64,000 nucleotides of DNA from assembly GCA_964574415.1 (NCBI GenBank), contig CAZNNM010000002.1, positions 311,141-375,140 of the forward strand, read 5' to 3'. Shown here piece after piece: positions 4,298 through 64,000 of this stretch. Each line of letters opens with the position of its first letter. The first letter of the stretch is position 1. This DNA is from an uncultured Rickettsiales bacterium. Its GTDB lineage: Bacteria; Pseudomonadota; Alphaproteobacteria; Rickettsiales; CAZNNM01. The notes under the pieces are model-generated. The model saw nothing but the letters and a program-made list of their open reading frames with translations. It searched no databases and was not told the DNA's origin. A program made the position numbers and the translations under genes.

Positions 4298-5761
4298 ATG
4301 ACATATACTATCCTCATTGTTGATGACGATCCGAATCAGCAACGTATTGCTGAGCATATCCTGCGCGATAAAATGGAATATAATACCATTGTCGTAGGCG
4401 GCGGTAAGGAAGCGATTGATATCCTTAGCTCTGAACGAGCCCATACTATTGATCTGGTGCTGCTTGATCTCTCTATGCCGCAAGTTAGCGGGATGGATGT
4501 GCTGCGTGCTGTCAAACCGCTCAAGCGCACTCCACCGATTATCGTGCGCACTGCACATGACGATGTGGATCTTGCGGTTGAAGCGATGAAAGCCGGTGCG
4601 GTGGATTTTGTGACCAAGCAAGATGGTATCCAAAAACTGCAAACCTCCATCCATAATGCACTACGCCTTTATGCTGTTAGCGATGAATTACTGCGTTTGA
4701 AACGTAGCATTGGTGCGCAAGTTACCTTCTCTAATATTATTGGCGAAAGTGCCATCATCAACGAAACCATTGCCCTGGGCCGAAAAGCGGGCCGCTCGAA
4801 TATCCCCGTCTGCATTCAAGGGGAAAGCGGTGTGGGTAAAGAATTACTCGCACAGGCCATTCATAGCGATAGTGACCGCGCGCACAAGCCATTTGTAGCC
4901 GTAAACTGTGGTGCCATTCCTGAAAACCTGGTAGAGAGCATTCTCTTCGGCCATGAAAAAGGAGCATTTACAGGGGCGATTGAAAAAAGCATCGGTAAAT
5001 TCCGCGAAGCGGAAGGCGGCACATTGTTCCTGGATGAGGTGGGAGAATTAAGCCCTAATATCCAAGTGAAACTCTTGCGTGCATTGCAAGAAGGCGAAGT
5101 AGAATCCGTTGGCGGCAAACAACCAGTCAAAGTGGATATCCGCGTCATCTCTGCGACCAATAAAGATTTAGCCGAACGTGTCAAACGTGCTGAATTCCGT
5201 GAGGATTTATATTACCGCCTGCATGTATTCCCTATCATGGTTCCACCACTGCGTGACCGTAAGGATGATATTCCATTAATGATCGACTACTTCTGCAAGC
5301 GCTTTGCCGCGGAAGAAGAAAAACCCATTATCGCTGTGACCGAACGCGCGCGGAACGTGCTGATCAATTACCAATGGCCTGGGAATATACGCGAGTTGAA
5401 GAATGTGATTTTCCGTGCTGTGGTATTAAGCGATAATGAGTATCTGGATGTTGCCGACTTCCCGCATATCGTCCATCAGCTAGAAGTCTCCCAACACCGC
5501 CAAACCGCACAGCAAATCGCGACCTATACACGCTCATCTGATACTGATGAAGCTGCGATTTCCACCGTGGATGCTTCTGGTCACTTTATGACACTGGGCA
5601 AAATGGAAGAGGAAGTGATTCGCTCTGCGATGAAGTTCTATAATGGCCGCATTTCTGAAGTAGCCCGCCGTCTAGGCATTGGCCGTTCAACGCTCTACCG
5701 AAAACTCACTGAGATGGGATTGCATGAATACCGTCCTGGTGAGGATGATAAAGATGAGTAG
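4298..5761 (+). CDS. Sigma-54-dependent response regulator (REC-AAA-HTH), possibly TacA-like
   Basis: REC domain (VDDD, DLSMP), GESGVGKE Walker A, GAFTGA, C-terminal ARRLGIGRSTLYRKL Fis-type HTH. Confidence 0.92.
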   Translation: MTYTILIVDDDPNQQRIAEHILRDKMEYNTIVVGGGKEAIDILSSERAHTIDLVLLDLSMPQVSGMDVLRAVKPLKRTPPIIVRTAHDDVDLAVEAMKAGAVDFVTKQDGIQKLQTSIHNALRLYAVSDELLRLKRSIGAQVTFSNIIGESAIINETIALGRKAGRSNIPVCIQGESGVGKELLAQAIHSDSDRAHKPFVAVNCGAIPENLVESILFGHEKGAFTGAIEKSIGKFREAEGGTLFLDEVGELSPNIQVKLLRALQEGEVESVGGKQPVKVDIRVISATNKDLAERVKRAEFREDLYYRLHVFPIMVPPLRDRKDDIPLMIDYFCKRFAAEEEKPIIAVTERARNVLINYQWPGNIRELKNVIFRAVVLSDNEYLDVADFPHIVHQLEVSQHRQTAQQIATYTRSSDTDEAAISTVDASGHFMTLGKMEEEVIRSAMKFYNGRISEVARRLGIGRSTLYRKLTEMGLHEYRPGEDDKDE

Positions 5762-51369: not shown

Positions 51370-51746
51370 TATTCTTCCTTCTTATCTGCGATGAAATTCT
51401 CTACAAACTCCGCGATTTCTATACTTTCAAAAATTCCGCGATAAGCTGGGCCAGACGTACGTTTCACCAGCCTCTCAATTTTATAGCCCCCCTCTCTATT
51501 TTTATCGAACAACCCCGCAATCCAGTCTAAAATTCTAGGGTGTAGGGGGTGGGGACTAAGCAGTGCCTCCGCAACAAGCGTAAGGTTGGGTTCAGCGTCT
51601 TTGGGTACTGGCTTCGCGCACCATTGCAGCTTTCCTTCGTGCATAATGCATGATGCTTCATATTGGAGGCCAAGCACTGTATGCACGAACACATCTTCAA
51701 TGTGGCAAATATCATCGGTCTTATGCGGCTTCACGCTTTTCCTCAT
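51129..51746 (-). CDS. Hypothetical protein downstream of integrase, probably 3'-truncated
   Basis: ATG 51746 overlaps the integrase end; last about 15 codons lie within MmeI-like coding sequence; start uncertain. Confidence 0.55.
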   Translation of the reverse strand: MRKSVKPHKTDDICHIEDVFVHTVLGLQYEASCIMHEGKLQWCAKPVPKDAEPNLTLVAEALLSPHPLHPRILDWIAGLFDKNREGGYKIERLVKRTSGPAYRGIFESIEIAEFVENFIADKKEEYQHNSKHPKWRAIRKEAIHAARLHFGKKDKAGKLIKHGEASVSKIEDALTAYKKAVNEHDRLNAEQLSNTVCALASISFV

Positions 51747-52935
51747 TGAGTTTTGTATCAAGGAAATCCGCCCACCACTGCATGAGCTTCTTGCGGTCTT
51801 CGAGGTAGATTGCCTTATTGTAGGTACCGCGTACCTTGGATTTTTCCACATGAGCAAGTTGCATTTCGATATGGTCAGGGTTGAAGCCCTTTTCATTCAA
51901 TATGGTGCTGGCAGTATGACGGAAACCATGAGGCGTTGCTTTAGAGGCGGTGAGCTTCTTGACCACTTTGATAAGCCCTACATCGGAAACAGGCTTTTTC
52001 GCACGTGTTCTGCCGGGAAAGAGCAAATCACCATCGCCGGTAATTTTTCGTATTTCCGCAATGGTGGCAAGTGCCTGCTGTGATAATGGTACCATATGCT
52101 CACGCTCGATTTTCATACGCGAAGCAGGAATTACCCACAATTTCTCTTTCTCATTGATTTCAGACCATGTTGCGCCACGTAATTCACCGGGACGCACAAA
52201 GGTCAGCGCAAGGAGCTTCACTGCAAGCTGCATTAGGGAATAATTTTCTGGGTCTTCGATACGTTGTAGGAATTCGGTCAATTCGTCTTCACGCAGATGG
52301 TCACGATTTTTGACCTTATTGCCTTGTATATATTTTGAACGGCCAAGCGCCGGGTTCATATCGCATAACCCTTGCACAATAGCGTGTTCAAAAATAGCCG
52401 TACAATACTGATTGATACGCTTTGCCACATCAGGAGCTTTGCGCTCCTCAATGCGTTTGAGAACACTCATAATATCCGGCACTTTCACTTCAGCGATAGG
52501 CTTCCAGCCGATAACGCTGAACACATCTTTCTCTAACCGGCTTAGAATATTCTTGGCATGCTTTGGTGCCCACACTTGTTTCTTATACCAATCGCGAGCA
52601 ACTACTTCAAAAGTGTTAGCGCTCTCTGTGACTTTCTGCTGATGGTCACTTTTCTTTTTGATATTCGGGTCTACACCCTTTTTGAGAAGCGCTTTTGCCT
52701 CATCCTTTAAGCGCCGTGCATCTGTGAGGCTAATTTTGCCTTCTGTGTTGCCGTATTGGCCAATAGTGAGAATGTTATACTTGCCATTAAATTTGTAGGG
52801 ATACTGCCAGACTTTAGTACCACTTGGTCGTACCAGTAATACCAAACCACCTTCATCATAGAGCTTATAAGGCGTATCCTTAGGTTTAGCGCCACGAATA
52901 GCGGTTTCAGGAAGCTTAGGATTTATCTTTGGCAT
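51721..52935 (-). CDS. P4-like tyrosine integrase with N-terminal arm-binding domain
   Basis: KPKDTPYKLYDEGGL arm domain; RPGE, HGFRH, LAH, YNKAIY catalytic residues. Confidence 0.95.
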   Translation of the reverse strand: MPKINPKLPETAIRGAKPKDTPYKLYDEGGLVLLVRPSGTKVWQYPYKFNGKYNILTIGQYGNTEGKISLTDARRLKDEAKALLKKGVDPNIKKKSDHQQKVTESANTFEVVARDWYKKQVWAPKHAKNILSRLEKDVFSVIGWKPIAEVKVPDIMSVLKRIEERKAPDVAKRINQYCTAIFEHAIVQGLCDMNPALGRSKYIQGNKVKNRDHLREDELTEFLQRIEDPENYSLMQLAVKLLALTFVRPGELRGATWSEINEKEKLWVIPASRMKIEREHMVPLSQQALATIAEIRKITGDGDLLFPGRTRAKKPVSDVGLIKVVKKLTASKATPHGFRHTASTILNEKGFNPDHIEMQLAHVEKSKVRGTYNKAIYLEDRKKLMQWWADFLDTKLNEEKREAA

Positions 52936-53100
52936 AGCGGGCACTTCTATAGGGTATATTCATACCCCATACCCTATCATATACCCTAAAAAATGCAAGA
53001 TGCGGACGTGTCCACATGTATCCACACGGACTAAAAGCCACTTTAATATGCTGTTTTTTCTTGATTTAAAATCTTATTTGGAAGTACTTGGAAGTAAGTT

Positions 53101-53145: not shown

Positions 53146-53343
53146 TGGTGCTTGGGGCATTTCTCCCCGCTTACTTTGTTTTCTTTGTGTTTCTGCAAAG
53201 CGTTGTTTTTACTGGATAAATGGCAGTTATCATGCGCTTAGTGTTTCTACCGGCTGCGCCGTGATTTTCTGCCTCTTGCTTCCATAGTGCTTCCACGGAA
53301 GCAGGCAACCGCAGCCCATAATTGAAACGAAAAGAGGTTGCCA

Positions 53344-54513
53344 ATGCCAAAACTGACCAAGCGGTTTATAGATGCCGCAGAAATACAATGCAAAGACTAT
53401 TTCATCTTTGATTCCGAGCTGCCCTGCTTTGGGGTGCGGGTCATGCCATCGGGCCGTAAGTCCTACGTGATTCAATATCGGGCCGAGCGAAAAAAGATTC
53501 GGCGCAAGAGCCTTGGTATGCATGGAGTGGTTCCGCTGGAGGAAGCTCGGAAGAAAGCCTTCAAAATTCTGGCGGCTGTGCAATCGGGCGATGATCCTGT
53601 CGGAGAGGAACGCGCCAAGCAATATGCACTGACCGTCAACGACCTTGCGGAGCGATTCATAGAGGAACACGTGGATGTGCATTTGAAACCGCGCACTGCT
53701 GATGGCTACAAACGCAACCTTAAGAAATTCATCCTGCCTCAGATTGGCCATCTGAAGATTACGGATGTGACGCGAGCCGATATATCGGCATTTCACCATA
53801 CGCGTCGCAAATCGCCTTACGAGGCGAACCGGTGTTTGGAGATCATATCCAAAATGTTTAATCTGGCTGAGATGTGGGGGCTGCGTCCGGATGGCACCAA
53901 TCCTCGTCGCCATATCAAGAAATACCCTGAAAAGAAGCGCGAACGGTTTTTGACCCCGGACGAAACCAAGCGCTTGGGTGCCACGCTGAAACAGATGCAT
54001 GCAGAAGGCGTGGAATCGCACTCCGCAGTCAACTGCATCAAACTGTTGTTGCTGACCGGGTGTCGCCTGAGCGAAATACAAACCCTGCAATGGAAATTCA
54101 TCGACTGGGCTGACTCTACGATCAAATTGCCTGATTCTAAAACCGGCGCGAGAGTCATTTATGCTGGTGAGCATGTGTTGGACGTGCTGCGGGCTATCAA
54201 AGCGCACCCTGACACACCTGCCGACAATCCTTATGTGATTTACGGAACGCTTGAGGGGGCGTACCTCACTGATATGCAAAAGCCGTGGCGGCGCATCCGC
54301 AAGCGTGCCGGTCTGGAAGATGTGCGCATCCATGACCTGCGTCATAGTTTTGCCTCCTATGCAGTTAGCCAAGGCATGAGCCTGCCTATGATAGGAAAGC
54401 TGCTCGGCCACACACAGGTGCAAACCACGGCACGCTATGCCCATCTTATGTCCGACCCGATCAAACAAGCCGCCGGTCAGGTGTCTGGTAATATTGCTGG
54501 GCTGGTATCGTGA
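53344..54513 (+). CDS. Tyrosine integrase (alphaproteobacterial type with arm-binding domain)
   Basis: FDSELPCFGVRVMPSGRKSY arm domain; TGCRLSE, HDLRH, LGH, TARY. Confidence 0.95.
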   Translation: MPKLTKRFIDAAEIQCKDYFIFDSELPCFGVRVMPSGRKSYVIQYRAERKKIRRKSLGMHGVVPLEEARKKAFKILAAVQSGDDPVGEERAKQYALTVNDLAERFIEEHVDVHLKPRTADGYKRNLKKFILPQIGHLKITDVTRADISAFHHTRRKSPYEANRCLEIISKMFNLAEMWGLRPDGTNPRRHIKKYPEKKRERFLTPDETKRLGATLKQMHAEGVESHSAVNCIKLLLLTGCRLSEIQTLQWKFIDWADSTIKLPDSKTGARVIYAGEHVLDVLRAIKAHPDTPADNPYVIYGTLEGAYLTDMQKPWRRIRKRAGLEDVRIHDLRHSFASYAVSQGMSLPMIGKLLGHTQVQTTARYAHLMSDPIKQAAGQVSGNIAGLVS

Positions 54514-54612
54514 ATTCAGGTTTTATTCTATCCCGGTGGATAGACTCAAATACAACTGAACCACCTCGACACCACAATACCCGCAAAGCCCTGTCCTGAC
54601 TAGAGGAAGTTG

Positions 54613-54636
54613 CCCGCGCTACCGGAGCGCGGGTTT
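54613..54636 (+). terminator. Possible terminator hairpin between convergent integrase and HTH genes
   Basis: CCCGCGCT-accgg-AGCGCGGG-TTT. Confidence 0.5.
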
Positions 54637-54674
54637 CCCATGAAGATGATAGACTCGTTTTTGGATGAATTCAG

Positions 54675-55265
54675 CTATGTAACAGTGTAAAATCCGTTCT
54701 TCCGCGCCCCGTTGTAGCAGATAGCGTTATGCTCCAACATGCTGGCGATGTCACGTTTGGCGGTCTTATGGCTCACCCACCACTGCGTGGCAATATCATC
54801 GGCTTTTAGTTTCTTTCCTCTCTGTAATTCACCGATGAACCATAGCTGACGATGGTTCAATTTGATAGCCACATCCAGATTGACCATCACATTTATAGGG
54901 ACATATTTGTCCCTATAAACTGGGTTTTCCGGTCTGCTAAGTGCCGTTTTAGGGTGCATTTTTTCGGGTATGTTTTCGGCTAAACAAACCTCCCACACAT
55001 CCGCACGACCGATCATCTCCAGCAGTCCTTTAAGCACCTGCGGATACACTCCGGCCAGCATGATTAAATGCGCGGATTTCGGCGCATTGATTGCCTGACA
55101 CCACTTATTGATTGTGTGCAAATTAGCGCCTGTAATGCGCCCAATTTCTTTCACCACGGAAGTGTCATCCTGATGCTCGTGACGCAGGGCGTTGGCCACC
55201 ATGGTTGCCACTGATTGGTCATCAATAGACGATAGTAAAACTTGGCTAAAATTCTGAAAAGACAT
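54675..55265 (-). CDS. Putative DNA-binding protein with XRE-like N-terminal and winged-HTH C-terminal domains
   Basis: KEIGRITGANLHTINKW; ADDIATQWWVSHKTAKRDIASM...GARKNGFY. Confidence 0.65.
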   Translation of the reverse strand: MSFQNFSQVLLSSIDDQSVATMVANALRHEHQDDTSVVKEIGRITGANLHTINKWCQAINAPKSAHLIMLAGVYPQVLKGLLEMIGRADVWEVCLAENIPEKMHPKTALSRPENPVYRDKYVPINVMVNLDVAIKLNHRQLWFIGELQRGKKLKADDIATQWWVSHKTAKRDIASMLEHNAICYNGARKNGFYTVT

Positions 55266-55359
55266 GTAATCGCTCCTTTTGTTAAAATGATGGAAAGGAG
55301 CATTTTCGCTGGCGTTTCAGTGAATGCCGAAGAATTGCATATAAAACAGGATCATTCAG

Positions 55360-56928
55360 TTGAGAGATTTATTTGGCTTGGCAAACGGAGATACGAAAAC
55401 CCCGTCGATCAACATGGCGGCGATGTATGTGCGCATGTCCACTGACCACCAGAAATACTCAACGGAAAATCAGGCCGAAGCGATCAAGGAATATGCCAAA
55501 CGCAAAAAGCTGGATATCGTTAAGACCTATGCCGATGAAGGCAAAAGTGGATTGAATCTGGCGGGGCGTGATGCGCTCAAAAGCCTGATTGATGATGTGC
55601 AGAATAATCGTGCCGAGTTCAAAGTGATTTTAGTGCTGGATGTCACGCGCTGGGGACGGTTTCAGGATGCGGATGAAAGCGCCTATTATGAGTATATCTG
55701 CCGCCGCGCTGGCATTGACGTGCAGTATGTGGCCGAGCAGTTTGAAAATGACGGCAGCCCAGTATCCAACATTGTAAAAAGCGTGAAGCGCTCAATGGCT
55801 GGCGAGTATAGCCGTGAGCTATCCAACAAGGTGTTCGCTGGTCAATGCCGCCTAATCGAGAAAGGCTTCCGGCAAGGTGGTCCCGCTGGCTTCGGCCTGC
55901 GCCGCTTGTTGATTGATGAGCATGGCAATCCCAAAGCGGAGTTGAAACAAGGTGAGCATAAAAGCCTGCAAACGGATCGAGTGGTCCTGATCCCCGGTCC
56001 TGATGAGGAAATCAATATCGTGCGCTGGATTTACCATGCCTTCATTCATGACGGCATGAAAGAAACAGAGATCGCCCATTCCCTGAATCAGCGGGGCATT
56101 CTCACGGATTTGGACAGGCCGTGGACACGCGGCACAGTGCATCAGGTGCTCACCAATGAAAAATATATTGGCAACAACGTCTTTAACCGCACATCGCATA
56201 AGCTGAAAAAGCGCCGAGTGGAAAACTCACCGGATATGTGGGTGCGTGCCGATGGCGTGTTCGACGCGATTGTCGATCCCAGCGACTTTTACACAGTGCA
56301 AGGCATTTTACGCGAGCGCAGCCGCAGGTTCTCCGATGACGAGATGTTGGAAAAATTGCGTTATTTGCATGAGCGTCAAGGCTGGCTCTCTGGCATTATC
56401 ATTGACGAGCAAGAGGATATGCCATCCAGCAGTGCATACCAGCATCGTTTCGGAAGTTTGCTTCGAGCTTACAAGCTGATCGGCTATACCCCTGACCGGG
56501 ATTATCGCTATATCGAGATCAACCGCCGTCTGCGCACACTTTACGCAGAAACGGTCGAGGACACCATTCGCAAGATACGCGATCTGGGCGCATCCATCCA
56601 CCGGGAGGTGGGTTCGGACTTGCTCTATCTCAATAATGAGCTGACCGTTTCCATTATCATTTGCCGCTGCATACAGACACCCACCGGAGCCTATCGCTGG
56701 AAGATACGGTTAGATAGCGGGCTGGAGCCAGACATCACCGTGGCCATACGCATGGATGCCTGCAACGAAAATCCACTGGATTATTACCTATTGCCATCAT
56801 TGGACATTGAGAATCCGAAGATTCGGCTGTCAGAAAACAACGGTTTGGCGCTTGATGCCTATCGCTTTGATGATCTCGAATACTTCCTGATGCTGGCTGA
56901 ACGCACACCAATCAGGGAGGCCGCATGA
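55360..56928 (+). CDS. Large serine recombinase-family protein
   Basis: YVRMST catalytic Ser, YADEGKSG, DVTRWGRFQ, GFRQGG..GFG, TVHQVLTNEKYIG; start may be ATG 55414. Confidence 0.92.
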   Translation: MRDLFGLANGDTKTPSINMAAMYVRMSTDHQKYSTENQAEAIKEYAKRKKLDIVKTYADEGKSGLNLAGRDALKSLIDDVQNNRAEFKVILVLDVTRWGRFQDADESAYYEYICRRAGIDVQYVAEQFENDGSPVSNIVKSVKRSMAGEYSRELSNKVFAGQCRLIEKGFRQGGPAGFGLRRLLIDEHGNPKAELKQGEHKSLQTDRVVLIPGPDEEINIVRWIYHAFIHDGMKETEIAHSLNQRGILTDLDRPWTRGTVHQVLTNEKYIGNNVFNRTSHKLKKRRVENSPDMWVRADGVFDAIVDPSDFYTVQGILRERSRRFSDDEMLEKLRYLHERQGWLSGIIIDEQEDMPSSSAYQHRFGSLLRAYKLIGYTPDRDYRYIEINRRLRTLYAETVEDTIRKIRDLGASIHREVGSDLLYLNNELTVSIIICRCIQTPTGAYRWKIRLDSGLEPDITVAIRMDACNENPLDYYLLPSLDIENPKIRLSENNGLALDAYRFDDLEYFLMLAERTPIREAA

Positions 56929-57821
56929 AACAAAAAGACCGCAAAGCTAAAATTAAGATGATCCCCATTGAACGGATCAACGTGTTGAATCCGCGTGTAC
57001 GGAGTCAGAAAATCTTTGTCGATATGGCAGAGAATATCACCAAGGTGGGATTGAAACGCCCGATCACCGTAACACCCACCGGCTCTGCTGGTGAAGGAAA
57101 AGAATATGATCTGGTGTGTGGCCAAGGAAGGATCGAGGCATTTCAGGCTTGTGGGCAAACGCACATCCCGGCAATCGTGATTGATGCTTCAGAGGAAGAA
57201 GCGCTCATCATGAGTCTTGTGGAGAATCTGGCTCGCAGGCAGCATCGCTCGCTTGATCTGCTGCATGGCATCGAGGTGTTACAGCAAAAAGGCTATGATG
57301 CGAAAACCATCGCCAAGAAAACTGGCCTCACTGAAAACTATGCCAAAGCGGTGCTGGATTTATTGGAGCTGGGGGAAGAACGGCTTTTGTCTGCGGTGGA
57401 AGCTGGTCACATGCCGGTCAGCGTGGCTGTTACCATTGCCAATTCGCCCAATGACGAGCAGAAAGCGTTGCAGGAAGCCTATGAAAATAACGAGCTGCGC
57501 GGCGGCAAGCTGAAAATGGCGAAGCGCCTACTGGAAACCCGCAAGCAGCGCGGCAAAGGGATTCGCCATCAATCTGGCAAAGGTGGCCGCAGCCGCAAGG
57601 CCGGTGCCATCTCTTCGCAGGATGTCCTCAAAATCTATCAGAAGGAAGTGGATCGCAAGCGATTGCTCACGCGCAAAGCGGATGCCGTCAGCAGCCGGAT
57701 GCTGTTCATCACCGAGGCGTTGCGCCGTCTTTACAGGGAAGATCATTTCACCACGCTGCTGAAAGCTGAGGGGCTGACAACCATGCCGAAGCAACTCTCC
57801 GCATTATTGGAGGCCAAATGA
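56925..57821 (+). CDS. ParB/Srx N-terminal domain protein with RepB-type C-terminus (copy 1)
   Basis: VGLKRPITV, LVCGQGRIEAF, SLVENLARR; ATGA overlap with the recombinase. Confidence 0.85.
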   Translation: MKQKDRKAKIKMIPIERINVLNPRVRSQKIFVDMAENITKVGLKRPITVTPTGSAGEGKEYDLVCGQGRIEAFQACGQTHIPAIVIDASEEEALIMSLVENLARRQHRSLDLLHGIEVLQQKGYDAKTIAKKTGLTENYAKAVLDLLELGEERLLSAVEAGHMPVSVAVTIANSPNDEQKALQEAYENNELRGGKLKMAKRLLETRKQRGKGIRHQSGKGGRSRKAGAISSQDVLKIYQKEVDRKRLLTRKADAVSSRMLFITEALRRLYREDHFTTLLKAEGLTTMPKQLSALLEAK

Positions 57822-58744
57822 CCAAAGACAAACAGATCAACGCATTACCGGATGGAGGCATTGCCATCGGTTTTGATAGTGACATGGTTACGCTCCGCAT
57901 CGACCAGATCGTGCCGATCAAGGTGGTGGCCAACACGCTGCAAAAAAGCTCTAAATATAAGCAGATTCTGTCCTCCATCCGTGAAGTGGGCGTGATCGAA
58001 CCGCCCGTTGTGGTACCGGAAGGAAAATCCAAGGAACGCTTCATTCTGCTTGATGGCCACATGCGTATCGAGGCGCTGAAGGAGCTGGGCAGCGATGAAG
58101 TAGTCTGTCTGATTTCCTCTGACGATGAAGCCTTCACCTATAACAAGCACGTCAACCGCATTTCTCCCATTCAGGAGCACCGTATGATCCGGCGTGCCGT
58201 TGAGCGTGGTGTGCCGGAGGAGAAGATCGCTAAGGCACTCTGTCTTGATGTGAAAAGCATTGTGATGAAGCGCAAATTACTGGACGGCATTTGCCCAGAA
58301 GCCTCTGAGATGCTGAAAGACAAGATGGTGGCCAACGGCGTGTTCCCGATTCTCAAACGCATGAAAGCCTACCGTCAGATTGATGCCATCACCCTGATGA
58401 ACGATACCGGCACTTATTCCGTGTCATACGCCAAGGCATTACTCGCGGCTACGCCCAAAGATCAGCTAGTAGAGCCAGATAAACCAAAGCGGATTAAGGG
58501 GCTGGACGCGGAACAGATGGCACGCATGGAGAGCGAAATGGCCAGTCTCCAGCGTGAATACAGATTGATCGAAGAAAACTACGGAACAGATGTGCTGAAT
58601 CTGACGCTTGCCAAAGGTTATCTTGGGTCGTTGCTCGGTAATGCGCGTGTGGTGCGTTACCTTGCCCAGCATCATCCGGAAATGCTCTCCGAGTTTCAAA
58701 AGATCACCGAGATTACGTCGCTGGATGGTGGCAAGGCGGCGTAG
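57818..58744 (+). CDS. ParB/Srx N-terminal domain protein with RepB-type C-terminus (copy 2)
   Basis: VGVIEPPVV, LLDGHMRIEAL, TYNKHVNRI; ATGA overlap. Confidence 0.85.
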   Translation: MTKDKQINALPDGGIAIGFDSDMVTLRIDQIVPIKVVANTLQKSSKYKQILSSIREVGVIEPPVVVPEGKSKERFILLDGHMRIEALKELGSDEVVCLISSDDEAFTYNKHVNRISPIQEHRMIRRAVERGVPEEKIAKALCLDVKSIVMKRKLLDGICPEASEMLKDKMVANGVFPILKRMKAYRQIDAITLMNDTGTYSVSYAKALLAATPKDQLVEPDKPKRIKGLDAEQMARMESEMASLQREYRLIEENYGTDVLNLTLAKGYLGSLLGNARVVRYLAQHHPEMLSEFQKITEITSLDGGKAA

Positions 58745-58839
58745 CTGAAGCAGGAATGTGTGGGCGGGCTGGACGCTGGAATCACATTTAACGGGGACCG
58801 GGACCCATAAGCGCCGGGACCGCAGGAGAAGCCGTTCGG

Positions 58840-58942
58840 GGATGTGCTCCGGTCATGGAGCGAGTGCGGTGGTGGGAATGACGGCGAACCCGTTCACAGC
58901 CCACTAGGTCGGCTTGAGTTTTCGCTGACCGTTTACGCATCC
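58840..58942 (+). ncRNA. Candidate structured RNA (multi-stem junction)
   Basis: Hand-folded stems: 58840-45/58937-42, 58846-50/58857-61, 58870-76/58900-06 with inner 58880-84/58890-94, and 58907-13/58924-30; strand and expression unproven. Confidence 0.4.
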
Positions 58943-58992
58943 ACACCGGCATGATTGGTAGCTTCAGGCCATGATGCCGGTGTGCTTAATTT
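58942..58992 (+). terminator. Long hairpin at the GC-rich/AT-rich boundary
   Basis: CACACCGGCAT / ATGCCGGTGTG 11-bp stem, then CTTAATTTT. Confidence 0.55.
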
Positions 58993-59074
58993 TAAGCTTA
59001 TAAGAAGTGTATACAAAACAACTTAGGTCACTATAATCAGCACTTTAACATGGAACAATTTGCTGGATATAAAA

Positions 59075-60244
59075 ATGAGCCTTGAAGAATTGCTCAAGCG
59101 TAGCCTTGAGGAAGAAGAAGTTTCTACAGTTAGCAATGCATTTGGAGGCGCAAAAGCGTCTGGGAACACCAAAAGCTATTCTGTCGCAAGAATACGTGAC
59201 TTACTAATCTATAACGCCCAAGATCATAATTGTGAATTTGCTGAAATTATAAAAAGATGCCAGGCTATTTTGCCAGCAAAGCTTTTCAGAAGCTCCATAG
59301 GAAATTTGATACGGTTTTCTTTTCTTATTGAACTGACCAACTTAACGGTAGGGTCTACAAAAATGAAAACCAGATGGCTACCCGGACTTATCTTGATGCC
59401 TCAGGATGGATCATTTGAACCAATCCAAGGCTCATTTGAGCCAGGTAACGATCCTAGGTCCTCTTCCTTTGAAGACTGTTTAGCGGTTTTTGTAAACTGC
59501 ATAAGAATATTATTGGAAAAAGTTTCTTCTGATCAATCACTTGTGACAAAGCTTGAGCAATTATCCGCTACTACGAGTTTTCCCTATGAGTTTGTATTTG
59601 ATTATGTCGACACAGCTTTATTTCCTATTCATGTAAAATCAAACGTATCCTGGGTGTTTAATGAAGACATAGAGTGGCTTCTATCGGCACGACCAATTAT
59701 CTGGCCTTGCTTAACAAAGCAACAAAAAGACAAAATTCAGACAAAAACTTACAAAACTGATAGGGCCTTAACTGGCAAAGACAAAACTAATCGTGCCAAA
59801 AGGTGGGAAGTATTATCAGCAGACTTCCAGCACGCTTCATTGACCCAGTGCTGGAGTGTTGAAAGAAAGCTTCTTGGTGAATTAGTTGGATTTGAAGGCT
59901 TTCCACAAGATACAAAGCAGCTATTAATTCAGAATGGCGTGCAAACTGAATTTGCAATAAGCCGATGTCCGGTTACCTTAGAGCCACTACAATTCTCTGT
60001 GCTCCTAAATCCTGCTGTTCACGGGAGATCTGATTATCAAGTCGGCCACTTACACCCGCTGAAAAAAGGTGGAAGGCATGATGGTGAAAATGTTTGTTGG
60101 CAATCTTGCGATGGAAACCGTATTCAAGGAGACTTGATGATAGAAGAGATAGTCGAACTCTTAGATAAGATTATGCAACGAAAGATAGAGCTTGGAGGCT
60201 CTCATATTGCCATTGTTAATCAAGAAGTGGCAAAAGACGGCTGA
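59075..60244 (+). CDS. Putative HNH (beta-beta-alpha-Me) restriction endonuclease
   Basis: C-terminal CPVT...GHLHPLKKGGRHDGENVCWQSCDGN; directly upstream of an N6 methyltransferase. Confidence 0.7.
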   Translation: MSLEELLKRSLEEEEVSTVSNAFGGAKASGNTKSYSVARIRDLLIYNAQDHNCEFAEIIKRCQAILPAKLFRSSIGNLIRFSFLIELTNLTVGSTKMKTRWLPGLILMPQDGSFEPIQGSFEPGNDPRSSSFEDCLAVFVNCIRILLEKVSSDQSLVTKLEQLSATTSFPYEFVFDYVDTALFPIHVKSNVSWVFNEDIEWLLSARPIIWPCLTKQQKDKIQTKTYKTDRALTGKDKTNRAKRWEVLSADFQHASLTQCWSVERKLLGELVGFEGFPQDTKQLLIQNGVQTEFAISRCPVTLEPLQFSVLLNPAVHGRSDYQVGHLHPLKKGGRHDGENVCWQSCDGNRIQGDLMIEEIVELLDKIMQRKIELGGSHIAIVNQEVAKDG

Positions 60245-60360
60245 AATTTTGTTATCAATCTTAAAAAGACAAACTTCTGCTGGAATCTTCTAAAAAAACA
60301 GTTTATGTTTTTGATGAAATGAAAAACATAAACTGAAATTTGCAAATCGAGAGGCATGCT

Positions 60361-62313
60361 ATGAAAGGGGTTCAGCTAGATTTATCCACAGATGTTGAAA
60401 TGCATGAGGTTTACCGAAGAATAAGAAATTATCTTGCAGGTAGAGTTATTGGCATAACTAGAGATAAAGCGTTGCTCCATGAAGTAGTCAAATGCCTTTT
60501 CTGCAAAATAGAATTATCGGAAAACTTCGCACAAGGACTCTCGGGAAGCGATGAAGAGAACGCAAAAACTTATCGCAAATCATTTTCTAATCTTAAAGAA
60601 AGACTTCCTCATATCTTCGGTGAAGACGAAGAAATTTTACTAGATCCTATTTCTATTAGCTACGTTGATAGAGAGTTATCGTTACTAAATCTTTCTGACC
60701 CGCAAAAAGACCCTCTCGGTGAACTGTACCAGGCATTTATTGGTTCTGATATGCGTATGGCGGAAGGTCAGTTTTTTACCCCCCATCCAGCTATAGCATG
60801 GCTTGTTGAAGCAATAGATTTAAAGCCCGGTGAGAAAGTAATAGACCCTGCTTGCGGACCAGGAGGTTTTCTCAGCTATGCAGCAAGATTTTTATTACGT
60901 AGCGGTGTTGATAGAAAAAGTGTTAGCGCAAATTTATTTGGCATTGAAAAAGATGAGTATCTTTCGCAACTAGCTAATGCTCACATAGCGATGGCTACCT
61001 TAGAAAAGGCGAATATTTTTTGTGCCGATTCAATAGAGAAAAAAGATAATAAAGGAAATCGCCTCAGTTTAGATATGGAGGGGCAATTTGATGTTGTGTT
61101 GGCAAATCCGCCTTTTGGAGCGAAAATAAAAACGGGTTCCGAGGAGGTTAGAAAAACTTTTGACCTGGCTTATAAATGGAAATTAGATAAGAAAACAGGT
61201 AGAATTCTCAAGACTGATATTTTGCAAACAAATACACCACCTCAAATTTTATTTATTGAACTCTGCCTTAAGCTTCTCAAGCCAGGTGGCAGAATGGGAA
61301 TCGTTGTTCCCGAAAGCATGATATCAAACTCTTCAACCAGTTATGTAGTTCAGTATATTCGTGATAATGCTCAAATATCAGCTGTATGCGGCATGCCAGA
61401 GTCCTTATTCAAAACAAGTGGCAAAGGTGGAACTCATACTAAAACATGCCTATTGATTGCAACTAAATCATCCAAAAAGAAAGGCACAAATAATTCCGTA
61501 TTTATGGCTGAAGCTCAGTGGTGTGGGCATGATAGTAGAGGAAATAAAATCCCCAATAATGATTTGCCGATTACGTTGAAAAATTACAAGCAGCGCAAAG
61601 AAAGTGATAAGTCATACAGCCATACAGGTTATATGGTCGCACAGGATGATATTCGAGAGAATATTTTAGCCCCAAGATATTATAATCCAGAGCCAATCGA
61701 GAATATGCGCTTATTGTCAGAAACACATGATATTATCTCTATTGAAGAATTAGTACGAGATGGCGTTATCTCTTTTTCAACAGGTGATGAAGTGGGTAAA
61801 TTGGCCTACGGAACGGGGCCAATTCCTTTTGTAAGGACTTCGGATATTTCTAATTGGGAGGTAAAGCTAGACCCAAAACATGGAGTTTCCGAGGAAATCT
61901 ACTCGTCCTTATCGAAAAGACAGGATGTTCGGGAAGGTGACTTGCTAATGGTTCGTGATGGAACCTATTTAATAGGCGCTTGTGCATATATATCAAAGTA
62001 TGATGAGAAAATGGTATATCAGAGCCATCTTTATAAAATTCGTATACACAAAAAAGAGGTTCTTTCTCCATTTCTACTACTAGCCCTTTTGTCATGTGAG
62101 CCAGTTTTAATGCAAATTAAGGCGAAGCGATTTACTCAAGACATTATTGATACACTCGGGAAACGAGTTAATGAGTTGCTTTTACCTATCCCCAAATCAT
62201 CAACACATAAGAAACAAATTGAAGATATGGTAAAAACCTCCGTAGAGGACAGAATAGAGGCTCGTGAATTGGCTCGTTCTGCAAAGACTTTGATTCTATC
62301 AAAGGCTGCTTAG
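60361..62313 (+). CDS. N6-adenine DNA methyltransferase (HsdM-like) fused to a single HsdS-like target-recognition domain
   Basis: GQFFTP, IDPACGPGGFL, NPPFG, then IPFVRTSDI...GDLLMVRDG...LLLPIP TRD pattern. Confidence 0.88.
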   Translation: MKGVQLDLSTDVEMHEVYRRIRNYLAGRVIGITRDKALLHEVVKCLFCKIELSENFAQGLSGSDEENAKTYRKSFSNLKERLPHIFGEDEEILLDPISISYVDRELSLLNLSDPQKDPLGELYQAFIGSDMRMAEGQFFTPHPAIAWLVEAIDLKPGEKVIDPACGPGGFLSYAARFLLRSGVDRKSVSANLFGIEKDEYLSQLANAHIAMATLEKANIFCADSIEKKDNKGNRLSLDMEGQFDVVLANPPFGAKIKTGSEEVRKTFDLAYKWKLDKKTGRILKTDILQTNTPPQILFIELCLKLLKPGGRMGIVVPESMISNSSTSYVVQYIRDNAQISAVCGMPESLFKTSGKGGTHTKTCLLIATKSSKKKGTNNSVFMAEAQWCGHDSRGNKIPNNDLPITLKNYKQRKESDKSYSHTGYMVAQDDIRENILAPRYYNPEPIENMRLLSETHDIISIEELVRDGVISFSTGDEVGKLAYGTGPIPFVRTSDISNWEVKLDPKHGVSEEIYSSLSKRQDVREGDLLMVRDGTYLIGACAYISKYDEKMVYQSHLYKIRIHKKEVLSPFLLLALLSCEPVLMQIKAKRFTQDIIDTLGKRVNELLLPIPKSSTHKKQIEDMVKTSVEDRIEARELARSAKTLILSKAA

Positions 62314-62756
62314 TTGGTTAAATCATAGATTTTAGCCTCAGCCTCTCGCCGCTGCACCAACCCTCGCAGCTTCCGGCCACCGGCCCAGACCCAGCGCATG
62401 AACTCGGCTGGGACTTCCTCATGCTCCTCTCGATTGACCTTGCGGCGCAGGGTTGATCGCTGCAGTGCGCCGGAGCCGAGATTGAAGGTGAATGACACCA
62501 ACGCATCAAACTGGCCGTCTGTGAGTGGCACTTTGATCAGTCGCAGGACAGCATGCTCTGCGATGCCAACGTCTTTGATCAGCAACGCCTCGCCAGCCGC
62601 CTCGGAAATGCCGCCTGCGAACATCTCGGCCTCGCCCGGACGCAGCAAGTGGCCATATCCAATGGTGGGCAGTCCGGCGGCATCCAGATAGATTTCCGGC
62701 TCAAAGCCTTCAAACCGCTTGATGAGATCAATGCCTTGTTTGGTGATCTGGCGCAT
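62310..62756 (-). CDS. Phage lysozyme (GH24 endolysin)
   Basis: FEG...YLDAAGLPTIGYGH, QFDALVSFTFNLG, GLVQRREAE. Confidence 0.93.
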   Translation of the reverse strand: MRQITKQGIDLIKRFEGFEPEIYLDAAGLPTIGYGHLLRPGEAEMFAGGISEAAGEALLIKDVGIAEHAVLRLIKVPLTDGQFDALVSFTFNLGSGALQRSTLRRKVNREEHEEVPAEFMRWVWAGGRKLRGLVQRREAEAKIYDLTN

Positions 62757-62757
62757 G

Positions 62758-63183
62758 TCATCGCCCCTGACGCAGTTTGCTCATGGCGCGTTGGCCAAAA
62801 TAGAAGGAGATAATGCCTGCAAAGATCGCCTGATCTTCTGCTGTCCAGAGCAGCCAAGGCAGATCGGCAGAAAACTGCATTATCTTTACCACGGCATAAA
62901 GAATGAAAAAGCTGTAGGCGATGACAGGGCGCACAGTGCCGATCAGTGCGTCCACCCATTTGATGCCGGTGTGATAAGTTTTGTAGAGTGCTCGGCTTTC
63001 GGCAATATCGGCCTGCACGTTAATTTCTTCGAGGCGGTTCGTGTGACCTTGGCGTTGTTGTTCCATCTGCATTTGCAGGATCGCCAGCTCATGCTTCCGG
63101 TCAGCCGCATCGCGCCATATTTTCAGCAGATCTGGAAACGCCGAGCTGATAAACCCCAGTAATGCTCCAATTAATGTGATCAT
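62758..63183 (-). CDS. Phage membrane protein, holin-like
   Basis: Hydrophobic N-terminus plus two C-terminal TMs (VRPVIAY..., ISFYFGQR); directly upstream of the lysozyme. Confidence 0.6.
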   Translation of the reverse strand: MITLIGALLGFISSAFPDLLKIWRDAADRKHELAILQMQMEQQRQGHTNRLEEINVQADIAESRALYKTYHTGIKWVDALIGTVRPVIAYSFFILYAVVKIMQFSADLPWLLWTAEDQAIFAGIISFYFGQRAMSKLRQGR

Positions 63184-63184
63184 A

Positions 63185-63433
63185 TCAGCCTCCCTGCATG
63201 ATGGTTTTTATGCCCTGCCACAGCGCCACCAGCGCTCCGGTAAGCGCGGCGGTAATGGCTGAGCGTTTAATCCACTTGATGACTTCATCCGACCCGGTGC
63301 GGGATTTGCGCAGGTAGATCATGTCGGCCTGCATGGCATTGGGATCGTTGGTATCCACGCCGTATTTGGTCAAAGCATCCTCGATGCCCTCACGCACTGC
63401 TGTGCGGATCGCTTTTTTAAGTTCTTCATCCAT
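63185..63433 (-). CDS. Small phage membrane protein with C-terminal TM
   Basis: 82 aa, hydrophobic AITAALTGALVALW; tightly packed in the lysis region. Confidence 0.6.
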   Translation of the reverse strand: MDEELKKAIRTAVREGIEDALTKYGVDTNDPNAMQADMIYLRKSRTGSDEVIKWIKRSAITAALTGALVALWQGIKTIMQGG

Positions 63434-63440
63434 GACAACC

Positions 63441-64000
63441 TCACCAATTCCATGGGCCGTGTGGCTTGAGATACTGGACGTTCAGGCGCACCACGCCGGT
63501 GCTGAAAGAACCACTGTCCGGTGTGAGGAGCAGTGGCGTGTCGCTGTAATAGGTCACCGGGTGGTAGCTCATACCGATATTGGTGGAATCCTGAGCCTTA
63601 CCGATACCGTTGCCGTAGCGGGAGGTGTCACCCGATACGCCCACACCGAACGTGGTCACGGTGCCGGTGATGGCGGTGATCACCCGCGTATTGACGGCAA
63701 TCACGCTGGAACGGTCAGGAATATTGGTGGTCGTGCTGGTGTCGGTGCTTAAATCGACATCCTCCTGCCAGCTCTGCACACGCAGATACTCGCCGCTATC
63801 CTTCATGATCAGGCCAAACGGCACCCAAGCAGAGCCGTCATAGGCCATGCGGGTTCCAAGTGCCTCGACCACTGCATCCATCCATTTGAACGGCGCGTAA
63901 AAAACCCAGCCGCCGGCGAGGTATTGCGCTAGCTCATTCGCATGGCTTGTAAAATCACCGGTGGGACTGGTGCCAACGATATAGATATCTCCCAAGGTCG
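63441..64000 (-). CDS. DUF2793-like phage tail-associated protein (5'-partial)
   Basis: GDIYIVGTSPTGDF...GGWVFYAP pattern; frame open to the window edge. Confidence 0.7.
   Translation of the reverse strand, partial: TLGDIYIVGTSPTGDFTSHANELAQYLAGGWVFYAPFKWMDAVVEALGTRMAYDGSAWVPFGLIMKDSGEYLRVQSWQEDVDLSTDTSTTTNIPDRSSVIAVNTRVITAITGTVTTFGVGVSGDTSRYGNGIGKAQDSTNIGMSYHPVTYYSDTPLLLTPDSGSFSTGVVRLNVQYLKPHGPWNW

Follow-up and report, generated by a model that had tools for sequence, protein, structure and literature searches.

The window, by which we mean the whole 64,000-nucleotide stretch of DNA analyzed here, contains an island of mosaic composition. Genes for an AAA_13 protein, an MmeI-type enzyme, and two tyrosine integrases are followed by a recombinase-ParB-ParB module, after which come a restriction-modification cassette and, beyond it, genes for phage lysozyme and DUF2793. 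The module is built around a three-gene operon encoding a large serine recombinase and two ParB/RepB proteins, ParB1 and ParB2 (Table 1), and this gene order is repeated in approximately 150 loci. Both ParB1 and ParB2 gave sequence matches to Spo0J/Noc chains in the PDB. Pfam detected no zinc-ribbon domain in the recombinase, whose C-terminus shows at most a weak HNH_repeat match. Because a divergent 196-aa open reading frame accompanies the recombinase in 59 related loci, as determined by tblastn, we consider it part of the conserved module as well. PADLOC and NCBIfam returned no specific family for the recombinase, ParB1 or ParB2. Modules of this kind are common on alphaproteobacterial plasmids, islands and prophage-like elements, and to our knowledge nobody has stated what they do.

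The operon is separated from the AT-rich cassette by a gap of 315 nt, measured from the ParB2 stop codon, and it is within this gap that the RNA element lies. As judged from the comparisons below, positions 58745-58999 of the forward strand are one structured RNA domain of ∼240 nt with a predicted pseudoknot, spanning from the ParB2 stop codon to a long hairpin at the start of the AT-rich cargo. A sequence-only reading of the same DNA had described a GC-rich, RNA-like element that extends up to the restriction cassette, and GC content does fall at ∼59000, from 0.57 at 58600-58999 to 0.38 at 59000-59399. That reading placed the end of the element correctly, where the cargo begins; its start, however, is at the stop codon (58745) and not at 58790.

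Table 1. Features of the recombinase-ParB-ParB module and its 3' RNA element in the window.
Feature	Positions	Strand	Remarks
196-aa ORF, divergent from operon	54675-55265	-	Pfam HTH matches weak
Recombinase-ParB1-ParB2 operon ending in the RNA	55360-58744	+	
Large serine recombinase	55360-56928	+	Pfam Resolvase+Recombinase
ParB1 (ParB/RepB protein)	56925-57821	+	Pfam ParB_N+RepB
ParB2 (ParB/RepB protein)	57818-58744	+	Pfam ParB_N+RepB; stop codon 58742-58744
Leader motif CUGAAGC	58745-58751	+	directly 3' of ParB2 stop codon; complements P6 apical loop
P0, variable 5' hairpin	58755-58788 (58755-60 / 58783-88, AATGTG/CACATT)	+	predicted, low confidence
54-aa ORF, candidate small protein gene	58788-58952	-	
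H-type pseudoknot (H1 + PK)	58792-58817	+	
H1 hairpin	58793-95 / 58804-06	+	pair 11-20: GC in 89 copies, AU in 10
PK, H1 loop with downstream bases	58798-801 / 58814-17	+	covariation
P2, long-range helix around P2a	58820-24 / 58865-69	+	double changes in 4/5 pairs
P2a, variable hairpin	58832-41 / 58847-58	+	covariation; window-specific extension
P3	58871-76 / 58900-05	+	double changes in 5/6 pairs; 98% of cells pair
P3b (inner P3), invariant loop CGAAC	58879-84 / 58890-96	+	98.6% of cells pair
P4 hairpin, variable sequence	58907-12 / 58925-30	+	double changes in 5/6 pairs
P6, long terminal hairpin	58942-59 / 58968-84	+	inverted repeat; terminator-like
P6 apical loop, conserved	58960-67	+	AGCUUCAG
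U-rich tail 3' of P6	58985-58999	+	

A sensitive DNA search aligned a conserved core of 140 nt (58786-58936) at 74% DNA identity between the Rickettsiales MAG and two Paracoccaceae plasmids (from Paracoccus and Marinibacterium), on one of which the core lies directly 3' of the same three genes. Related loci were collected through ParB2 homology (80 loci) and through a 22-nt DNA pattern from the element (120 loci), and an nhmmer profile detected the element in 163 of 202 related loci, with one copy per locus. Wherever the flank was available, nhmmer and tblastn placed it 20–100 nt 3' of ParB2 and on the same strand. The carriers are overwhelmingly Alphaproteobacteria, and the nearest genome is a Rickettsiales MAG. 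Cultured candidates among the carriers include Paracoccus thiocyanatus ATCC 700171, P. aminovorans HPD-2, Thalassovita litoralis DSM 29506, Novosphingobium arvoryzae KCTC 32422 and Marinibacterium anthonyi La 6. The element was also present on 14 IMG/VR viral contigs and followed ParB2 in all 14 with enough sequence; in three of four whole viral contigs the module sits at the contig end with the RNA facing the interior. A covariance model built from the alignment scored the window copy at 127 bits and found no second copy in the 64 kb. There was no DNA match to the element in E. coli genomes and a phage collection. A ParB2 protein search of phages gave one match, to an unannotated 7.5-kb record.

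The element appears to be previously undescribed. Neither window positions 54000-64000 nor the element in eight related loci matched any of the 4227 models of Rfam 15 at E values up to 1, and the literature searched for combinations of serine recombinase, ParB and non-coding RNA held no description of it. We therefore file it as a new family among the structured non-coding RNA motifs tied to mobile-element genes. HEARO and int-alpA are orphan structured RNA motifs of this type, found near mobile-element genes by comparative genomics; like them, our element is recognized only by conservation, covariation and gene association, and unlike them it matches no Rfam model. The ctRNA of repABC replicons is an antisense RNA of ∼50–60 nt that lies between repB and repC and controls repC. 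The two have in common that a small regulatory RNA would stand beside a RepB/ParB-type gene on alphaproteobacterial replicons. However, the element is 240 nt long, is read from the sense strand, has no repC downstream, and does not match the Rfam ctRNA. With an entry for it in RNA family databases, such loci would no longer be labeled as empty or given spurious small ORFs.

The folding energy of the sequence is only mildly unusual (z = −2.1 for the forward strand and −1.3 for the reverse), and it is conservation, rather than this weak energetic evidence, that places the element beyond chance. We aligned 107 non-redundant copies, each less than 95% identical to the others. RNAalifold predicted 29 pairs, 20 of which showed compensatory changes. 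The model that we tested was completed by hand and includes the pseudoknot, giving 35 pairs and 3707 cells. Of these cells 95.9% pair, compared with 26–48% in controls in which the partners were slid by 1–3 columns, and double changes occur in 23 of the 35 pairs (276 cells among the 107 copies). On four of five measures none of 500 shuffles matched the observed value, in a shuffle control that ignores phylogeny. The stems thus covary strongly and the element is conserved in homologous loci, as would be expected of the structured RNA-like component of the module that had been proposed from the sequence.

The same alignment identified the folded strand. Of the cells, 8.4% are G-U and 1.7% are A-C, and because G-U is tolerated so far above A-C, it is the sense strand of the operon that folds. 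The lengths of the core are spread evenly modulo 3 (36, 30 and 41 copies), which excludes a coding constraint. In the junctions, nucleotide conservation is 90% or more among orders of Alphaproteobacteria, and ∼60 nucleotides in junctions and loops are near-invariant; conservation of the junctions to this degree exceeds the needs of a plain stabilizer.

Individual helices vary to different extents (Table 1). At the position of P0, relatives carry a different hairpin (GCTC-GGCC...GGCC-TT-GAGC). In the pseudoknot, PK pair 16-45 is CG in 71 copies and GC in 34, whereas at pair 17-44 98 copies have GC and 7 have AU, and one locus (L100) has another 4-bp stem in place of H1 and has kept the complementarity of the loop. 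P2a pair 66-96 occurs as CG (51 copies), GC (27), UA (13) and UG (10), and the P2 region (58820-58869) contains the conserved junctions GGAGAAG and (A/G)GCGAG. P3b includes many G-U pairs, and at P4 pair 185-209 50 copies have CG and 40 have UA.

The comparison supports several of the helices drawn in the sequence-only reading: TGGTGGG/CCCACTA corresponds to P3, GACGG/CCGTT to its inner part P3b, and GGTCGGC/GCTGACC to P4, while the 11-bp terminator-like hairpin (58942-52 / 58974-84) proved to be a portion of the longer P6. Other pairings have to be given up. The closing helix GGATGT/GCATCC has one arm in the window-specific extension of P2a and the other in the non-conserved linker, and GCTCC/GGAGC clashes with the covarying hairpin P2a. 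A switch was also suggested, in which GTGCG would pair alternatively with CGCAT; GTGCG is the 3' strand of the covarying P2, and CGCAT is not conserved. The H1/PK pseudoknot, the start at the stop codon, and the complementarity described next (58745-51 / 58961-67) are additions to that reading.

The leader immediately 3' of the stop codon is complementary to the P6 apical loop (CUGAAGC / GCUUCAG). In ViennaRNA folds of 16 members of the window's subfamily, GCUUCAG always occupied the apical loop of a 12–20 bp stem, and the P6 stem sequences were otherwise unrelated among the 16. Across this subfamily the leader motif lies 0–12 nt 3' of the stop codon. CTGAAGC in the leader and GCTTCAG in the loop occur together in 16 of 147 distinct copies, with the loop alone in one and the leader alone in five. 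In a single lineage (L037) a double compensatory change has produced TTGAGGC/GCCTCAA. Over 4.2 kb, the module at a MAG locus (L003) shares 93% identity with that of the window. The linker and the P6 stem of L003 are wholly different from the window's, and the hairpin and its loop are kept. A kissing contact between leader and loop that would close the whole domain (58745-58984) is likely, although not proven, because the compensatory support comes from this one lineage, L037. A generic search of all families for complementarity between the leader and the 3' region was not significant per sequence; the one conspicuous case, because of its consistency, is the leader-loop motif of the window's subfamily.

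The periphery is different in other families, which have an extra hairpin, P5, and conserved P6 arms (GGGCGUGCCGG / CCGGCACGCCC) separated by a spacer of variable length. The P6 arms are sequence-conserved in most families (GGGCGTGCCGG / CCGGCACGCCC). In the window the long P6 is followed by CUUAAUUUUAAGCUU. A scan for consensus terminators missed the window P6 because its loop exceeds 8 nt. Six consecutive U occur at one locus (L034); the mean number of T in the 10 nt after P6 is 2.75 across loci, compared with 2.25 expected. Because a U-tract 3' of P6 is not general, we can only infer that transcripts terminate there. As a separate observation, the 3' arm of P6 lies in a 22-nt direct repeat whose second copy is 4 kb downstream (58972-93 and 62961-82). 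The repeat is probably due to chance; the second copy is within an ORF, at a distance from the GC step.

The 3' hairpin also marks the limit of the module. Copies in unrelated contexts share just a unit of ∼3.6–4.4 kb, which starts at a conserved motif 110–160 nt upstream of the recombinase (GGAAAGAACTTGCCCTTTTTCGGAAACGACATTCC in many loci) and ends directly after P6. Homology between module copies stops at this hairpin, in agreement with the proposal that the element ends where the cassette begins. The right flank is different in each of three near-identical modules, which are those of the window, of L003 and of a variant strain found in sludge metagenomes. The end of the unit after P6 and the differing right flanks together make the RNA the inner border of an integration/maintenance module, and on this sequence evidence the RNA adjoins a cargo hot spot. 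The next downstream gene is on the forward strand in 67 loci and on the reverse strand in 56; this random orientation indicates that the RNA is not a leader for the cargo, and the idea of a cis-regulator of downstream cargo, one of those offered at the outset, is disfavored. No terminal inverted repeats or target duplications were seen at the ends of the conserved unit. Metagenome contigs contained no excision or circular junctions, and we interpret the contig breaks as branch points of the assembly graph that arise from other copies of the conserved core.

Not every operon of this type carries the RNA. A profile HMM and the covariance model found the element absent from 24 of 80 ParB2 loci (∼30%), and the operons of A. 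fabrum pAt and S. meliloti pSymA are without it. One locus whose ParB2 is 82% identical (L004) retains CTGAAGC and the start of P0 and then diverges, indicating that at least some of the losses are secondary. The operon was intact in 44 of 46 RNA-positive loci compared with 16 of 21 RNA-negative loci (p = 0.027); that is, it was broken in 2 of 46 loci with the RNA and in 5 of 21 without, so that loss of the RNA accompanies decay of the operon. Nevertheless, because 16 of 21 RNA-less operons look intact, and because well-known carriers lack it, the RNA is dispensable. Approximately 13–18 orphan copies were found, usually beside transposases, integrases or restriction genes, and several of these were truncated, degenerate or had broken helices.

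The element is present in RNA libraries. The data consist of assembled contigs of public runs that are unstranded, of low depth, and may contain DNA. In three RNA-labelled runs (two sludge metatranscriptomes and one compost), exact-match contigs of a P. thiocyanatus-type copy start at the 5' edge of the core and extend downstream, not into ParB2. A fourth run contained a 135-nt insert with both adapters, reaching from 2 nt after the stop codon to P4. Other RNA-labelled runs yielded low-depth contigs across the 3' end of ParB2 and the element, and seawater metatranscriptomes showed flat, uninformative coverage across the locus. The ends of the element's fragments differ among libraries. These data suggest, without proving it, that the element is co-transcribed with the operon and perhaps exists as a discrete stable species.

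We believe these observations are best explained, with a probability of roughly 45%, by an operon-terminal regulatory RNA of the integration module, probably protein-binding, that would set the 3' end and the lifetime of the message. The RNA would be the 3'-terminal domain of the recombinase-ParB1-ParB2 transcript, made together with the operon message and consisting, in order, of the leader, P0, the H-type pseudoknot, P2 around P2a, the two-part P3 with its CGAAC loop, P4 and P6. The transcript would end at P6, and a discrete 3'-UTR-derived RNA may persist. In the window's subfamily, pairing of the P6 loop GCUUCAG with CUGAAGC at the stop codon would close the domain. Because a ribosome engaged in termination at the ParB2 stop codon would sit over CUGAAGC, translation could oppose closure of the fold, and closure could report translation. 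The conserved junctions and loops would most likely be recognized by a protein of the module, either ParB-like or the atypical recombinase, or alternatively by a host RNase, a chaperone or another RNA-binding factor. ParB proteins are DNA binders, which is a point against a ParB as the RNA partner. Binding may then affect the stability and 3' end of the operon message, as feedback or retroregulation, and the element may also insulate the integration module from neighboring cargo.

A constrained RNA tied to this module provides a handle on the module's role, and it marks the 3' border at which defense genes and other cargo vary. The pseudoknot and the putative kissing pair of leader and loop are clear targets for mutation. 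Should a module protein prove to bind the RNA, the control of serine-recombinase elements would gain an RNA-based level.

Two known systems would come closest to the logic of such a regulatory RNA, namely retroregulation by lambda sib and the small RNAs derived from 3' UTRs. In lambda, sib is a simple RNase III hairpin that integration separates from int. The resemblance lies in a structured 3' RNA of an integrase transcript at the edge of an integration module, from which the stability of the message could be set. In contrast to sib, the element is a 240-nt pseudoknotted domain, follows two ParB genes instead of int, and is still attached to its operon when integrated. Small RNAs that derive from a 3' UTR and share the terminator of the mRNA tend to be short and to expose a seed region through which they base-pair. 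As in these RNAs, the element starts near a stop codon and ends at a terminal hairpin, is probably co-transcribed with the mRNA, and yields short fragments in RNA libraries. It differs from them in its compact fold of several helices and in its conserved junctions, features suggesting that its shape is what is recognized.

While a regulatory, protein-binding RNA is our preferred reading, the simplest competing account is that the element is a passive 3' cap, which provides termination and a block to 3'-to-5' exonucleases and so stabilizes or insulates the mRNA with no specific partner. Such a cap would be placed as the element is, at the 3' end of the operon and finishing in a strong hairpin, at the point where the homology of module copies stops, and the element is dispensable in ∼30% of loci. 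However, a stabilizer has no need of ∼60 near-invariant junction and loop nucleotides, of a pseudoknot, or of an apical loop paired with the leader, and the U-tract after P6 is weak in most copies. We consider this account unlikely, at about one chance in five.

We rate lower still, as improbable, a trans-acting RNA that serves the recombinase or the ParBs as a scaffold or guide-like cofactor when they choose or assemble on DNA. The logic would be that of the IS110 bridge RNA and IS1111 seekRNA (PMC11187229) or the TnpB/IscB omega RNA (PMC10278001), structured non-coding RNAs that likewise lie at the end of a mobile module, adjoin a recombinase or nuclease, and have some sharply variable segments; the setting of the element is similar to that of the RNAs of IS110, IS1111 and IS605 elements. 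Consistent with such a role, the element is strictly associated with one set of proteins at the edge of a mobile module, the recombinase is without the usual zinc-ribbon DNA-recognition domain, and short RNA-library fragments begin just after the stop codon. In addition, sharp variation is seen in P0, P2a, P4, the linker and the P6 stem, even at 93% module identity, but these variable parts are mostly paired stems and not open loops. The partners here are a serine recombinase and ParBs, unlike those of bridge, seek and omega RNAs, and the RNA is missing from ∼30% of otherwise intact operons, which stay intact without it. We could not define att sites, and we found no programmable loops complementary to flanks or ends: when the RNA (plus 130 nt) was compared with the 700 nt upstream of the recombinase, the longest complementarities equaled those of shuffled controls. 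The non-coding RNA cofactor first suggested for this element is possible but improbable, with guide-like complementarity at the level of chance.

The strongest form of this proposal, in which the RNA would be the obligatory scaffold or specificity partner in a recombination machine composed of two ParB-type proteins and a large serine recombinase devoid of a zinc ribbon, we hold to be equally improbable. If true, the RNA would contribute to site choice or directionality, and this would be the first RNA-dependent serine recombinase. If the RNA were needed for recombination, RNA-assisted DNA rearrangement would reach a new enzyme class, with obvious potential for tools.

A ligand-sensing, riboswitch-like aptamer or a self-cleaving ribozyme acting on the operon transcript is an even more doubtful candidate. 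In favor of either are the pseudoknot, the several helices, the highly conserved junctions and the terminator-like hairpin that comes next, together with the RNA-library fragment that begins 2 nt after the stop codon; yet the ends of library fragments are inconsistent. The element lies downstream, not upstream, of the genes to which it is linked, the orientation of the next gene is random, and no Rfam riboswitch or ribozyme family was matched even at E values up to 1.

A site acting as DNA, either as a folded single strand (attC-like, or an origin) or as a duplex (att or parS), seems to us highly improbable, and the early suggestion of a parS-like or recombination site is correspondingly disfavored. 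The position of the element on the edge of the conserved module, at which the flanks differ, the sequence-conserved P6 arms of most families, and the DNA binding of ParB proteins would all fit such a site. However, the tolerance of G-T far above A-C concerns one strand only, a pseudoknot and multi-helix junction would be untypical, and RNA libraries contain the element. The substrate of serine recombinases is duplex DNA. The P6 arms are ∼4 to 20 nt apart, a variation in spacer length incompatible with a dimeric duplex site. In the window's subfamily, moreover, the letters of the P6 stem are free and those of the loop are fixed.

Finally, that there is no element at all, and that we are looking at chance folding of GC-rich DNA or at a small protein gene, can be dismissed as having a negligible probability: although the z-score is just −2.1 and open frames are so common in such GC-rich DNA that open-frame counts on the core are uninformative, the 54-aa reverse-strand ORF fails as a gene, with indels that are not multiples of three and helix variation that is compensatory, and chance folding is in effect refuted by the alignment and covariation of the 107 copies, the element having hundreds of copies in all and retaining 74% DNA identity from a Rickettsiales MAG to plasmids of Paracoccaceae.

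Conserved approximately 110-160 nt 5' of the start of the large serine recombinase gene in the related loci L061-L192 and others is the motif GGAAAGAACTTGCCCTTTTTCGGAAACGACATTCC, which delimits the shared unit on the left; its counterpart in the window is weaker. Many of the loci have a covarying hairpin in the 5' UTR after this motif (e.g., CCTCCCTCG...CGAGGGGG). This left-edge sequence could be a promoter or operator, the site of recombination on the left side, or another RNA structure. The recombinase itself contains catalytic and 'Recombinase' domains, and neither a zinc-ribbon nor a coiled-coil domain was detected in it. Its C-terminal ~200 residues gave only a weak match to a homing-endonuclease-associated repeat (E = 0.013).

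Window coordinates of the features at and around the shared unit
Feature	Position	Strand	Remark
Tyrosine integrase gene	51721-52944	minus	back-to-back with integrase 53338-54513
Junction segment	53100-53145		between both tyrosine integrase genes
Tyrosine integrase gene	53338-54513	plus	back-to-back with integrase 51721-52944
Counterpart of left-edge motif	55296-55332
Serine recombinase	55360-56928
Direct repeat, first copy	58972-58993		3' arm and tail of P6
Promoter-like site	59010-59037		TATACA-16-TATAAT, 5' of AT-rich cassette
Inverted repeat	60299-60335		between 394-aa ORF and methyltransferase gene of AT-rich cassette
Direct repeat, second copy	62961-62982		within an ORF

At the other end of the unit, the long terminal hairpin of the RNA (P6) varies among relatives. 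On the minus strand of locus L109, below position ~1290 and just 3' of its element, P6 is broken off within the loop, and the N-terminus of a further serine recombinase gene starts ~30 nt past the cut hairpin (…RCAIHTRKSSEEGLEQEF…). This arrangement looks like either two tandem elements or a recombination event within P6. Divergence likewise begins within the P6 loop in L156. The closest relative after the MAG locus L003, L005, is without the GCUUCAG apical loop. In this locus, 3' of hairpin P4 (~5090-5140), the 5' arm of the 3' hairpin repeats the leader (CAGUGAAGCAGG vs GCUGAAGCAGG) and pairs with CUUCGCUG, which hints at alternative pairings in this variant. Two further features lie approximately 1.2 kb 5' of the L005 recombinase, at 79-151 and 237-322: a tRNA gene and a match to the integron-associated family sRNA-Xcc1 that falls below threshold (37.7 bits vs a gathering score of 53).

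The 3' arm of P6 with its tail recurs in the window as a direct repeat, with 13 nt exact and 19 of 22 identical overall; the ~4 kb between the copies holds the restriction-modification cassette and a lysozyme gene. Because the second copy sits within an ORF, distant from the GC step at ~62300, we consider that the repeat probably arose by chance; less likely, it is an old att duplication. The AT-rich cassette also contains an inverted repeat of 17 nt whose arms, separated by a 3-nt loop, match almost perfectly (CAGTTTATGTTTTTGAT / ATGAAAAACATAAACTG).

In the source metagenomes, depth over the junction segment between the tyrosine integrase genes was 5-10x that of its surroundings, and both of its sides were joined by many differing sequences. 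The segment resembles either a shared att site or part of a tRNA gene, although an ARAGORN scan of the window detected no tRNA.

In several MAGs, the module or the RNA is present twice, on separate contigs (L049/L053, L044/L056, L021/L042, L091/L133, and L139/L147), which fits an element multiplying inside genomes. Among loci that lack the RNA, the first 200 nt past ParB2 often lead into a Fic-family gene, identified by the record's annotation in L203 (A. fabrum pAt) and putatively, from the N-terminal sequence as read by eye, in L011, L013, L012, and L015. On the 5' side of this gene, short AT-rich sequences resembling CCTTAATAAGG or AAAGAAAG are repeated in arrays.
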